From an archaeon (lineage in GTDB: Archaea > SpSt-1190 > DYHY01), in NCBI GenBank assembly GCA_043803745.1, contig JAZDJS010000028.1:1-24500 (forward strand): 24,500 nucleotides of DNA, read 5' to 3'. This document shows positions 10,447 through 20,110 of the stretch, in pieces. The position numbers and the translations under genes were made by a program. The number at the start of each line of letters is the position of its first letter. Positions within the stretch are counted from its first letter, which is position 1. Under the pieces are notes generated by a model that was not told the origin of the DNA, made no database searches, and saw only the letters and a list, made by a program, of their open reading frames with translations.

Positions 10447-10660
10447 ATCTGGGAGGGCAGGCCAGGTGGTTTTTAACCATTTTGCCGAAGCCTGCTTTGC
10501 TCAAAAAGCAGTATTTGCCCGCAAAGTCAATGTGTTGTCTCACGTTGCCGGCGTCCCGTCTTCAAGGTCCGGAGTTAAGATACCTGGAAAAATATTCCGC
10601 CCCGAGCCCTTGCCGCCTTTCCTACACTAAGCTTTTAAATTCAAATTGATTACCACTAAC

Positions 10661-11398
10661 ATGGGGATAACTGGTATATACTTTCACACAGCAGAGAAAA
10701 TGCCCGAGATTCCTGATGGCACCGTTCAGCTGTGTTTTGCGTCCAATCCATATTCAGGCAGGCCGGATGGCAAGCTTGACAAGGAAGAATACTTGGCTTT
10801 TTTAGGAACCGTCTACTCCGAATGTTTCCGGACTCTCAAGCCGGGCGGAATATTCGTGACCCTGAACACGGACCTGCGGGACCACGCAAAATACAACCGC
10901 GGCGACCGGAGATTTGACGGAAGACTCTGGCGCAAGCACAACGATATTGCGCTAGTTGCCGAAGATTTGGGATTAAGACATTTCTGGACCGTGATATGGC
11001 AGAAAACGGCAGGAATTCCCGAGGTGAAGTATTTCGACGGAAGGATAATCGGTTATTCCTACGTCCAATTTTTCTGCAAAGATCGCCTGCCTCCGGGAGG
11101 GAATCCTCTTGAGGAACATCCCGATGTCTGGCCTTTGGAAGACGCGATGATAAGAGTTGATTCGAACGGATATGAATTTACCGAAGCTATTCATCCGGAA
11201 ATACCAAGAAGATGCATTAGGCTGTTTACGAAGGAAGGCGATGTTGTTTTGGCGCCGTTCACAGGGTCAGGAACAGTGCAGGCAGCGGCCCATGAGCTGA
11301 ATAGGAATTGGGTTGGCTATGAAACCAACAAAAATCTCGAAAGGCTCATTTCCGAAAGCATATTCGGCCCAATACGACCGGACATCTACAAAGCCTAG
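10661..11398 (+). CDS. N4-C/N6-A DNA methyltransferase-like protein (beta order) with atypical motifs
   Basis: Motif IV reads SNPY, then RTLKPGG, DVW, HPE, and motif I reads VLAPFTGSGT followed by RNWVGYE; TTTTAAAT upstream. Confidence 0.85.
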   Translation: MGITGIYFHTAEKMPEIPDGTVQLCFASNPYSGRPDGKLDKEEYLAFLGTVYSECFRTLKPGGIFVTLNTDLRDHAKYNRGDRRFDGRLWRKHNDIALVAEDLGLRHFWTVIWQKTAGIPEVKYFDGRIIGYSYVQFFCKDRLPPGGNPLEEHPDVWPLEDAMIRVDSNGYEFTEAIHPEIPRRCIRLFTKEGDVVLAPFTGSGTVQAAAHELNRNWVGYETNKNLERLISESIFGPIRPDIYKA

Positions 11399-17922: not shown

Positions 17923-18007
17923 GCTGAGGTAGCGAAGCGGTTAACGCGCCAGATTGCTAATCTGGTTTCCCGTAAGGGATGCATGGGTTCGAATCCCATC
18001 CTCAGCG
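17923..18007 (+). tRNA. tRNA-Ser(GCT)
   Basis: Acceptor GCTGAGG/CCTCAGC plus discriminator G; anticodon stem CCAGA/TCTGG with loop TTGCTAA; long variable arm TCCC-GTAA-GGGA; T arm ATGGG-TTCGAAT-CCCAT; no encoded CCA; TATTAAAA upstream. Confidence 0.97.
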
Positions 18008-18323
18008 CTCGCATATTCTATTGAAAATCACGATAGGCTCGCGCTCCGGACTTCATCCATACAATCGAACGATAGGCTCAGCCTCAGCGCTCAAGCCCTT
18101 CTTTTTCACGAAAAAGAAGCCCTTGATGGGAAGAAAAAGGTTGCGCGCCAATGACGCGCTTTTGGGCGCGCGGGTTCCCGAGACCGGGGAGGTTGAGGTC
18201 CGTGCCAGCGCACGGGGAATCCCATCCTCACTAGCGCTCGCATATTCTATTGCACGTCACAAAAGGCTCGCGCTCCGGACTTCACCCATACAATCGAACG
18301 ATAGGCTCAGCCTCATTAGCGCT
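17991..18323 (+). repeat. Two ~100-bp direct repeats beginning in the tRNA-Ser 3' end
   Basis: 17991-18091 versus 18217-18323: about 6 substitutions and two 3-nt insertions by eye. Confidence 0.92.
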
Positions 18324-18459
18324 GAAACCTGTCATGGGAAAAGAAAGAAAAAAGTCCGCAGTCTTCCAGAAAAAGCCGCAACCGTCCGGGAACACCTTCC
18401 ATTTGTCTTCAGTCAGTTACACTGCCAAATTATTAAACCAGACTAGACAAGCTTGCCAA

Positions 18460-19308
18460 ATGGGTGGGAAAACCGAACTTCTTGCAGTTGGAAATTGCCA
18501 GTATTTCGAGGTTCCCGCCAACTTCCCTGACGGACTCGAAGCGGCGCTTCCAAGGGCTCTTGCCCGTCTGCAGCAGGAGCGGGATGCTGTTGAGAAGGAG
18601 GCGGCCATTGAAATTGCCCTGACCCTTTCGACAAACCTTGGCCCGCCAGGCAGGGTTCGCCCAAAGCAAATCTCCGAGTTCTCCTGGTATCTTGAAAGGG
18701 AACTGCGCAGTCCTGACGTTTTCGACGGGTTGGATGATATCCAAGCATACCTGAAGGGGCGGCTGGTTGTGTTCTCCTACGCAAGCTCGTCCATTGTTTC
18801 CGCCCAGAACCATTTGCGGATGGTCGGGTCAGGAGTAGTTTCCCCCGGCGAAAAATACGAGACGAGTGAAAGATTCCTTGAAGAGGTTTCCGGAATCCCG
18901 GCAAGGGAGCTCGGAGCGGAACTTCTCGCCCCGCTAGTGCCGCTTCTTCCGGAGGGAACCCTTCCCGGGAGGTTTGGCGGTGATGAAGAAGACGAAGAAG
19001 AAGAGATACCTAACGGAAGCTATCTCGCGGACTACCTTTTCTCGGCAGCGCTCATCTCTCCGAACGCTTTTCTGGAAGCTGCCGAGGAGATTTCAGCAGT
19101 TGCAGGGAAGCTCCCCAAGAAAGAGCTCCTGGGATATGCAAGGTTCATGCGTGGAATCGAGACCTTCTCAAAGCTCCTCGAGGCGTCCAATCTAAACAAC
19201 CACCCGAAGAGGTTCCCTGCAAGAATTCTGGAATCTGCAAAGAGGATTTTCCAGGACAGCCTTGACTATTGGCCCCAGGCAAGCGAAACATACGATTTGC
19301 TGAAGTGA
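18460..19308 (+). CDS. Hypothetical protein (282 aa, acidic patch DEEDEEEE)
   Basis: TTATTAAA at 18430-18437 then ATG 18460; the track's N-terminal extension runs through the repeat and is unlikely. Confidence 0.75.
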   Translation: MGGKTELLAVGNCQYFEVPANFPDGLEAALPRALARLQQERDAVEKEAAIEIALTLSTNLGPPGRVRPKQISEFSWYLERELRSPDVFDGLDDIQAYLKGRLVVFSYASSSIVSAQNHLRMVGSGVVSPGEKYETSERFLEEVSGIPARELGAELLAPLVPLLPEGTLPGRFGGDEEDEEEEIPNGSYLADYLFSAALISPNAFLEAAEEISAVAGKLPKKELLGYARFMRGIETFSKLLEASNLNNHPKRFPARILESAKRIFQDSLDYWPQASETYDLLK

Positions 19309-19335
19309 GGCACCCCCGCCCCACGAGAATTTTCC

Positions 19336-19720
19336 TTTTTTGACAGTGTCAGTGCGGCCAACAGCCGGCCTCGATAAGAGCGGAAAAGTTCAGCATGCAA
19401 ATCTCCTTCGCGGCTCCGCTCAGGATTTCGGGCCCCTGCCCTCAACCTTACACAGTTTCTTTTTTGACCGTGTCAGTGCTGCAGCACAGATGTCCTGCCT
19501 TTGACTGGATTGTCTGCAGGCAAGTCTGAGGACCAAACGACTTTTTTCTTTGTAAAAGTTCTCCTCAGAGAATCAACGTTCCACCTGAAAAAAAGGGGTT
19601 CTGTGCCAGCCCGGCTGCTAAGAGCCGGATTTTCCCTTTTGAGAACATTCGGTCGCTCCCGCTCAACAGCCGGCCCTATTTTAGGTTCCCTGCAATAGAA
19701 GGGGGTTCGCTTGCGGACCC
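19336..19720. repeat. Mosaic of partial copies of the SRP RNA 3' end with REP-like hairpins
   Basis: 19357-19403 copies 19755-19798; TTCTGTGCCAGC at 19599-19610; CAACAGCCGGCC at 19664-19675; TTTTTTGAC(A/C)GTGTCAGTGC twice (~19336, ~19460); hairpin at 19702-19720. Confidence 0.85.
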
Positions 19721-19754
19721 CACGCATTTGATGAAACTTTCGTAAAGTTTCTGT

Positions 19755-20030
19755 GCCAGCAGCCGGCCTCGATAGCGGAAAAGTTCAGCATGCAAATCCC
19801 TTACCTCCATTCCGCAACCCCAAGGACACGCCACAAAGGACTTATGGTTGCTTCCTTCCGGATCTGGCCCGTTCAGCCTAGCGGAGCTCCGTTGGGACGA
19901 AACTTCGCCGTTGGGGGAGCTTGTAGGGGCTGAATTCCCCGAAACCTCCGCCGACCATCAGCCTGCCGTAAAGCCCGTTTGCAGTCCCTCTTGCGAGTTC
20001 AGGTCAGGGCTAGTAACCCGCCTAGCTGGC
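19755..20030 (-). ncRNA. ffs: Signal recognition particle RNA (7S/large SRP RNA)
   Basis: Helix 8 signature GCCAGATCC-GGAA-GGAAGCAACC (within 19870-19846); 5' GCCAGC pairs with 3' GCTGGC; long helix-5 pairing; Alu-like 5' end; ATTAAAA ~25 nt upstream. Confidence 0.9.
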
Positions 20031-20110
20031 GAGAAACAAGGACATCCGAGGGTTTTAATCCTTTCTTTTCGGCCGTGAACGACCTTTTATTTGGAAAGAA
20101 CGGGCGTTCC

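Follow-up and report, generated by a model that had tools for sequence, protein, structure and literature searches.

We analysed a 24,500-nucleotide (nt) stretch of archaeal DNA (contig C28 of assembly GCA_043803745.1, contig accession JAZDJS010000028.1; this whole stretch is hereafter called the window), and found that its minus strand carries a 280-nt gene for signal recognition particle (SRP) RNA, which runs unbroken from one strand of helix 1 to the other. The gene lies at 19753-20032 by the archaeal Rfam model (RF01857, Archaea_SRP) and at 19755-20030 by the large bacterial model (RF01854, Bacteria_large_SRP), which is where a first-pass annotation of the same letters had placed an SRP RNA. 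Judging from sequence comparisons, we consider it very probable that this is a functional SRP RNA from which helix 6 has been cleanly lost, and that the particle most likely consists of this RNA and SRP54 only. The gene and the parts of its RNA are the following.

19753-20032, minus strand: SRP (7S) RNA gene, single copy (RF01857, RF01854 and blastn)
20053-20059, minus strand: A/T-rich box ATTAAAA, likely an archaeal TATA box, about 24 nt upstream of the predicted 5' end
20025-20030, minus strand: helix 1, 5' strand GCCAGC, forming 6 base pairs (bp) with the 3' strand (RF01857 alignment)
20001-20019, minus strand: helix 3 and its loop containing AGCCC (RF01857 alignment)
19988-19997, minus strand: mini-hairpin CUC-GCAA-GAG between helices 3 and 4 (a 12-nt insertion in the covariance model, CM)
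19963-19984, minus strand: helix 4 (CM alignment)
19892-19906, minus strand: helix 5 conserved motif GAAGUUUCGUCCCAA, 5' strand (archaeal consensus uGA...CGuCC; its pairs covary)
19880-19891, minus strand: CGGAGCUCCGCU, the stretch of the would-be helix 6 branch, paired with the 3' strand (CM, constrained fold at -31.7 kcal/mol)
19837-19879, minus strand: helix 8, putative SRP54 site, with a GGAA tetraloop at 19856-19859 (CAGAUCCGGAAGGAAGCA motif, RF00169, covariation)
19809-19836, minus strand: helix 5, 3' strand beside helix 8, UUGUGGCGUGUCCUUGGGGUUGCGGAAU (CM alignment, constrained fold, covariation)
19755-19760, minus strand: helix 1, 3' strand GCUGGC (RF01857 alignment)

The archaeal model aligned over its positions 1-317 at 50.4 bits (E-value 3e-10 in a 1-kb search and 8.6e-11 in a search of the whole genome). 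The large bacterial model aligned over its positions 1-256 at 54.8 bits (E-value 8.6e-8), in keeping with the Bacillus-like architecture that had been proposed for this RNA, and the small bacterial model (RF00169, Bacteria_small_SRP) matched 19806-19903 at 38.5 bits. All three scores fall short of the Rfam gathering scores, which are 96.5, 60 and 40 bits, respectively. When Rfam was run over the whole window at gathering threshold, only a tRNA was returned and the SRP RNA went unreported, so that the suspicion that archaeal models may miss this gene was well founded. The very low Rfam score can be explained by the combination of an insertion in the Alu domain, the deletion of helix 6 and a divergent helix 5. 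Searching with the gene by blastn, we found one full copy of it in the studied genome, and when the flanks were compared with those of the same-genus genome G001, the alignment was restricted to the SRP RNA gene (79.6% over 294 nt).

Upon alignment to the archaeal model, helices 2, 3 and 4 were all recovered, and both strands of helix 5 carry the motifs of that model, GA...CGUCC and GGGUUGCG. Helix 8 has a GNRA tetraloop and conserved internal loops, with CAGAUCCGGAAGGAAGCA in the 19846-19863 region, and the terminal helix 1 that had been claimed is present as 6 bp between 20025-20030 and 19755-19760. The claim of an Alu-like domain was likewise upheld by the alignment of helices 2-4, but the enlarged helix 4 suggested with it was not; helices 3 and 4 are instead separated by an independent mini-hairpin of 10 nt. 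Together with UGAA, this hairpin stands where the archaeal UGUNR linker between helices 3 and 4 would be expected. It is found in all four genomes of the family, with compensatory changes in the stem and stable tetraloops (CCU-GAAA-GGG in G001, GGAAC-UUCG-GUUCC in G002 and CCCC-GCAA-GGGG in G003). Furthermore, the loops of helices 3 and 4 are complementary (AGCCC/GGGCU) and covary among relatives, as judged by eye in a MAFFT alignment; since this complementarity is both kept and covarying, the Alu domain looks functional. Outside the family, a hairpin is inserted at this same point between helices 3 and 4 in G012 (L046), and the 3' strand of helix 5 in G015 (L048:196-332) contains an additional hairpin, CUCUCCCGUUUACGGGAG, which is about 18 nt long and adjoins the conserved GGGUUGCG-type motif.

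Between the UCGUCCC motif of helix 5 and the GGGCCAG of the distal helix 8 stem we counted 23 nt (19869-19891), close to the approximately 20 nt given in the first-pass annotation, and in the CM alignment the 40 RF01857 positions of helix 6 are reduced to 1 nt. The pairings that had been listed for this stretch (CCCAA/UUGGG, GGA/UCC, CCGC/GUGG and AGG/CCU in the RNA) were all recovered on the reverse strand, and they fit a continuous stem from helix 5 to helix 8. One palindrome, CGGAGCUCCG, was considered as a helix 6 and rejected, as it has no GNAR loop and its homologous columns pair with the 3' strand in relatives. At the level of single residues, the deletion of helix 6 (40 positions reduced to 0-4 nt) was followed in five relatives. 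The same gap is present in 22 of 37 aligned SRP RNAs and, separately, in G003, and the length of the S domain is nearly constant across these 23 trimmed RNAs, at 100-103 nt.

We then asked how well the sequences fit an unbranched S domain. A pass with MAFFT and RNAalifold had recovered only 23 pairs, with the variable middle of the stem misaligned; the structure was therefore given by hand and the RNAs were realigned with a covariance model of the unbranched S domain (R1; 102 positions, 32 pairs), which biases the result towards that structure. R1 matched 23 of 23 trimmed RNAs at full length with 60.3-96.9 bits (72.2 bits for the window RNA), and 14 of 15 helix-6-bearing RNAs with 23.4-47.1 bits, several of these matches being partial. 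The pairing and covariation figures lean towards the structure, since the alignment was fitted to the structure under test and the window sequence is part of the model; read in that light, standard pairs fill 86.7% of cells across the 23 RNAs, as against 39-48% in controls with the 3' partners slid by 1-3 columns, both sides have changed in 29 of the 32 pairs, and the covariation score is 0.711 compared with 0.13-0.21 for the slid controls, with none of 500 shuffles attaining the observed values. Covariation, which had been named as a check on the proposal, thus supports, across 23 RNAs, a helix 5 that would run unbranched into helix 8.

Next, we searched for SRP19, a search that had likewise been proposed, and detected none in the studied genome (1.23 Mb) either with Pfam or with a profile of our own. 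The Pfam family (PF01922) gave zero matches at an E-value of up to 10, the best match of a profile of eight archaeal SRP19s among 24,101 six-frame open reading frames (ORFs; at least 30 amino acids, filters off) had an E-value of 2, and a motif scan for the conserved P.Y.D...GR core returned nothing resembling SRP19. When the Pfam search was extended to the phylum of the window, which is represented in the collection by 17 species genomes (two of 3.6-3.8 Mb, eight at least 90% complete), SRP19 was found in 0 of 17. In a second small-genome phylum, that of G021, it was found in 0 of 101 genomes (at least 80% complete, 24 families), giving 0 of 118 for the two phyla together. The same procedure applied to a control phylum, that of G039, recovered SRP19 in 37 of 38 genomes, including all 30 of high quality and also assemblies that are 81-89% complete.

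To place these absences, we compared the RNA and the protein across a sample of 41 genomes, made up of the studied genome, relatives of it and a range of other archaea. An SRP RNA match at an E-value of at most 0.001 was present in 38 of the 41, and SRP19 exceeded the Pfam cut-off in 12. In all 12 SRP19-bearing genomes the SRP RNA is 306-344 nt long and has a hairpin of about 40 nt at the helix 6 position, whose loops, where read through, are of the GNAR type (GGAG, GAAG, GUAG). Among the remaining 29 genomes, 26 have an SRP RNA match, and helix 6 is missing in 23 of these. The other three are G006 and G008, which are the 3.6-3.8-Mb genomes of the window's phylum and carry a shortened, UUCG-capped hairpin of about 28 nt with SRP19 likewise undetected, and G017, which has a full helix 6. 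At the two remnant loci (L017:1597-1743 in G008 and L018:203-349 in G006), the helix 8 loop also departs from GGAA, reading CCUUGAUCGG. The archaeal Rfam threshold is missed by 10 of the 23 helix-6-less RNAs, nine of which also fail to reach that of the large bacterial model.

An SRP RNA was matched in 99 of the 101 genomes of the second phylum, and in 85 of these it is 266-289 nt long. Upon examining the 14 longer RNAs, we observed that in six the S domain lacks helix 6 and measures 99-105 nt, the extra length being elsewhere, that five have an insertion of about 33-41 nt in the apical loop of helix 8 (four aligned, and L101 judged by match length), one has about 88 nt in that loop, and two match weakly; a helix 6 was seen in none of the 14. 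The apical-loop insertions lie at L093:121-254, L097:119-252, L094:61-202, L098:61-196, L101:119-254 and L092:112-287, and G033 (L014) has a 28-nt insertion at the helix 8 apical-loop site as well. These insertions may be tRNA-type introns.

The protein side of the pathway is otherwise present. SRP54 is encoded by an intact ORF of 445 amino acids (C31:9068-10405), with its M domain (PF02978) matching at 102.7 bits, and an FtsY-like GTPase (C31:6691-7278) lies about 2 kb upstream on the same strand, these being two PF00448 GTPases; SecY is also found in the studied genome, and the SRP54 M domain in all 41 sampled genomes. The proposal of an SRP19-independent archaeal SRP is therefore supported by an RNA without helix 6, by SRP19 being undetected in 17 of 17 genomes of the phylum, and by the presence of SRP54, FtsY and SecY. 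In such a particle, SRP54 and the window RNA would be the sole components, and SRP54 would bind without a helper, its M domain contacting the internal loops of helix 8 directly, in the way that bacterial Ffh binds 4.5S or Bacillus-type RNA. The FtsY cycle would be served by the GGAA tetraloop and helix 5, targeting would end at SecYEG, and the Alu domain would contact the ribosome. The bacterial SRP works in this manner, and such a mechanism is consistent with published binding data for archaeal SRP54.

Additionally, we looked for hints of expression. A TTAAAA-type box stands at an equal distance upstream of the gene in all four genomes of the family. Contigs from four metatranscriptomic libraries (four studies) fall inside the gene, namely X1 at 19802-20021, X2 at 19795-19932 with zero differences, X3 at 19788-20002 and X4 at 19790-19955, and all four span the helix 6 site without extra letters. 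That four RNA libraries bridge the junction unchanged shows that the trimmed form did not arise from misassembly of the studied genome. The cover is confined to 19788-20021 and the contigs are uninformative on the transcript ends; record 3 of X2 contains an internal joint that goes back 138, which we take to be an assembly artefact at the palindrome. The contigs are compatible with expression of the gene.

Several observations weigh against a functional RNA without helix 6 working with SRP54 only. The alignment used for covariation was fitted to the structure, the margin over the slid controls being large all the same. The minimum free energy (MFE) fold of the whole RNA is no better than that of shuffled sequences (z -0.23), and the MFE structure of the S domain, at -34.8 kcal/mol, is a local hairpin containing the palindrome, with the canonical stem at -31.7 kcal/mol; single-sequence folding being uninformative, the support for the structure is comparative. 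RNA libraries can contain DNA, which leaves transcription unproven. The genome is 90% complete and in 51 contigs, so that one missing small gene is conceivable for the studied genome taken by itself. The Pfam search for SRP19 also misses Sulfolobus acidocaldarius, one of four archaeal control genomes, which we take to carry SRP19, so that divergent SRP19s can escape such a search. Finally, the genome of G017 is 100% complete and its SRP RNA (L007:1501-1815) retains a full helix 6 capped by GGAG, yet neither profile matched an SRP19 there, which would mean a divergent SRP19 or a gene absent from the assembly. In light of these two cases, the failure to detect SRP19 in any single genome is not proof of absence.

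The last three of these points would favour an explanation in which SRP19 or helix 6 is present and was missed, SRP19 lying in the unassembled 10% or being divergent, or helix 6 coming from a separate piece of gene or arising through RNA processing, as with the permuted SRP RNA of Thermoproteus; permuted SRP RNA genes do exist (PMC4731332). We judge this very unlikely. Against a missed protein stand the 0 of 17 and 0 of 101 genomes set beside a control phylum in which even assemblies of 81-89% completeness yielded SRP19. A missed helix 6 is opposed by the contiguity of the gene and by the RNA-library contigs that cross the junction unchanged, and when a second SRP RNA fragment was sought in the genome, nothing but a 14-nt match (12.9 bits) was returned. 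The weight of the argument rests on the agreement, across many genomes, between the missing site in the RNA and the missing gene.

The route by which helix 6 was lost had been left between reduction and transfer. A Bacillus-type large bacterial SRP RNA gained by horizontal transfer would account for an Alu domain without helix 6, which is the Bacillus-type architecture, and for the end-to-end match to RF01854 with a bit score above the archaeal one (54.8 versus 50.4 bits). The E-values point the other way (8.6e-11 for the archaeal model versus 8.6e-8 for the bacterial one), and among the 21 helix-6-less RNAs having both scores, the archaeal model beats the large bacterial model in 19, by up to 97 bits, the exceptions being the window RNA and that of G012. 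For instance, the RNA of the same-genus genome scores 60.7 bits with the archaeal model versus 40.1 with the bacterial one. SRP54 is archaeal as well, with 86% identity to a record labelled 'archaeon', 79% to 'Candidatus Micrarchaeum sp.' and 65% to 'Candidatus Altiarchaeota archaeon', versus 34-35% to bacterial Ffh. Furthermore, two genomes of the phylum retain a helix 6 remnant at the homologous site, and this UUCG-capped remnant, together with SRP19 being undetected in these two large genomes, fits reduction better than transfer. Transfer is thus not supported, and we hold it to be even more improbable than an overlooked SRP19 or helix 6.

Reduction is the favoured route, in line with the remnant hairpins and the 19 of 21 archaeal-model wins, and the likeness to Bacillus is in all probability due to loss and not to common descent with Bacillus. 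By our inference, the loss of SRP19 came first and the decay of helix 6 followed. In a quick single-gene tree of SRP54 (support by SH-aLRT, the Shimodaira-Hasegawa-like approximate likelihood ratio test; rows G013, G014, G016, G019 and G036 left out), families f1, f2 and f3, the three of the phylum whose RNAs have no helix 6, are grouped (support 97), and the remnant-bearing family f4 falls outside them, in a placement that is not firm.

A partial copy of the gene lies close by.

19357-19403, minus strand: partial duplicate, 47 nt long, of the gene's 3' end at RNA positions 235-278 (91.5% identity, E-value 1e-9)

The duplicate is situated about 350 bp downstream of the SRP RNA gene and belongs to repeat families D4 and D5. 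A weaker third look-alike of the RNA 3' end was seen at about 19600-19632, and a 27-nt repeat (19332-19358 and 19456-19482) adjoins two of the copies. The arrangement recalls the partially duplicated targets seen after the integration of elements into the 3' ends of RNA genes; an integrase was not found among the genes of the window.

Such a duplicate, in a lineage of small genomes, could be taken to indicate that the gene itself is a decaying pseudogene in an organism that depends on a host or on SRP-independent targeting, and the low Rfam scores and the non-significant MFE fold would agree with this. However, the gene is the sole copy, its pairs are maintained by compensatory change relative to the relatives, and the putative SRP54 site is intact, with the GGAA loop and its flanking loops. 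SRP54 has an open frame, and its M domain is retained in 41 of 41 genomes; the promoter-like box is conserved, and the sequence is found in RNA libraries. We regard a pseudogene as the least probable of the explanations considered here.

The other features of the window lie outside the SRP RNA gene. The neighbouring genes are archaeal housekeeping genes, encoding a class I lysyl-tRNA synthetase, an XPD-type helicase, a diphthamide synthesis protein, a ThiI-like protein and a RadA-like ATPase. A gene for tRNA-Ser(GCU) lies at 17923-18008 on the plus strand, and 83 nt starting from its last bases (18004-18086) are repeated with 93% identity at 18233-18315, where the second copy starts 229 bp after the start of the first; this repeat is followed by a 352-amino-acid ORF (18250-19308) without a Pfam family. 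An N6/N4 DNA methylase (PF01555) is encoded at 10646-11398 on the plus strand amid ORFs without known family, and may be part of a restriction-modification system.

The abundance of window ORFs without known family, and the gain in this family of a conserved, tetraloop-capped hairpin in the Alu domain, also bear on whether an unrelated protein has replaced SRP19 as a scaffold, for example on the extra hairpin or on the helix 5/8 stem. We consider such a replacement unlikely. There is no candidate for the protein, the extra hairpin is in the Alu domain and distant from helix 8, and helix-6-less RNAs of other families do not have it; moreover, Ffh alone suffices for bacterial SRPs.

Taking a particle of SRP54 and a helix-6-less RNA as our preferred explanation for the studied genome, we extended it to the two phyla. 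There, SRP54 with a helix-6-less RNA of about 270-280 nt would be the normal state of whole archaeal phyla, SRP19 having been lost first and the docking arm having eroded afterwards, a generalisation that in our judgement is as apt to hold as to fail. The UUCG-capped hairpin of the large-genome sister family would then be an intermediate of this erosion, and its survival inside one phylum suggests that helix 6 may have been lost repeatedly. In a bolder version, the helix-6-less state would be ancestral in these deep-branching lineages, and SRP19 and helix 6 would be a later acquisition, common to other archaea and eukaryotes.

These results depart from the picture of the archaeal SRP in reviews. 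According to passages of a 2010 review, the archaeal SRP consists of SRP RNA, SRP19 and SRP54, and SRP19 genes occur in all archaeal subgroups, where they coexist with helix 6 (PMC2905702), whereas here SRP19 is undetected in two whole phyla and the SRP RNAs are trimmed to match. Our full-text literature searches turned up no account of an archaeal SRP RNA lacking helix 6, nor of small-genome archaea that have lost SRP19, supplementary gene tables lying outside those searches. What the present analysis adds is the SRP19 survey of two phyla with a control phylum, the helix 6 remnant in a sister family, the extra Alu hairpin and the counts of sub-threshold RNAs. Due to such scores, the gene for a universal, essential RNA goes unannotated in genomes of this kind, or could be labelled bacterial, and a dedicated covariance model would mend the missed annotation of helix-6-less SRP RNAs.

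Overall, the window RNA is a variant of a well-known RNA and not a new kind of system. With the canonical archaeal SRP RNA (RF01857; Methanocaldococcus jannaschii, Archaeoglobus fulgidus) it shares helix 1, Alu helices 2-4 with their loop-loop complementarity, a long helix 5 with the motif GA...CGUCC / GGGUUGCG, a GGAA-capped helix 8, an archaeal SRP54 and the promoter-like box. Unlike the canonical form, it has no helix 6, SRP19 is undetected, and UGUNR is replaced by UGAA and a GNRA-capped mini-hairpin. The Bacillus-type RNA (RF01854) has the same layout of Alu domain, helix 5 and helix 8, without helix 6 or SRP19; it differs in that the host and SRP54 of the window RNA are archaeal, and the score stays under the 60 bits set for gathering. 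HBsu is a further protein used by the Bacillus SRP. A third comparison is offered by archaeal SRPs that work without SRP19, as is proposed here. Passages of two papers state that archaeal SRP54 binds SRP RNA without SRP19, and according to a review passage and the title of a reference, Haloferax volcanii can do without SRP19 (PMC2905702, PMC6098224); the works cited there on SRP19-less archaeal SRP are Yurist et al. 2007, Diener and Wilson 2000 and Tozik et al. 2002. As described in those passages, these cases are laboratory deletions or reconstitutions in which helix 6 is retained, whereas in the genomes studied here both SRP19 and helix 6 are missing naturally and across whole phyla. The state of the two phyla parallels in nature the Haloferax SRP19 deletion and would define a minimal archaeal SRP, open to reconstitution and to comparison with the bacterial SRP.

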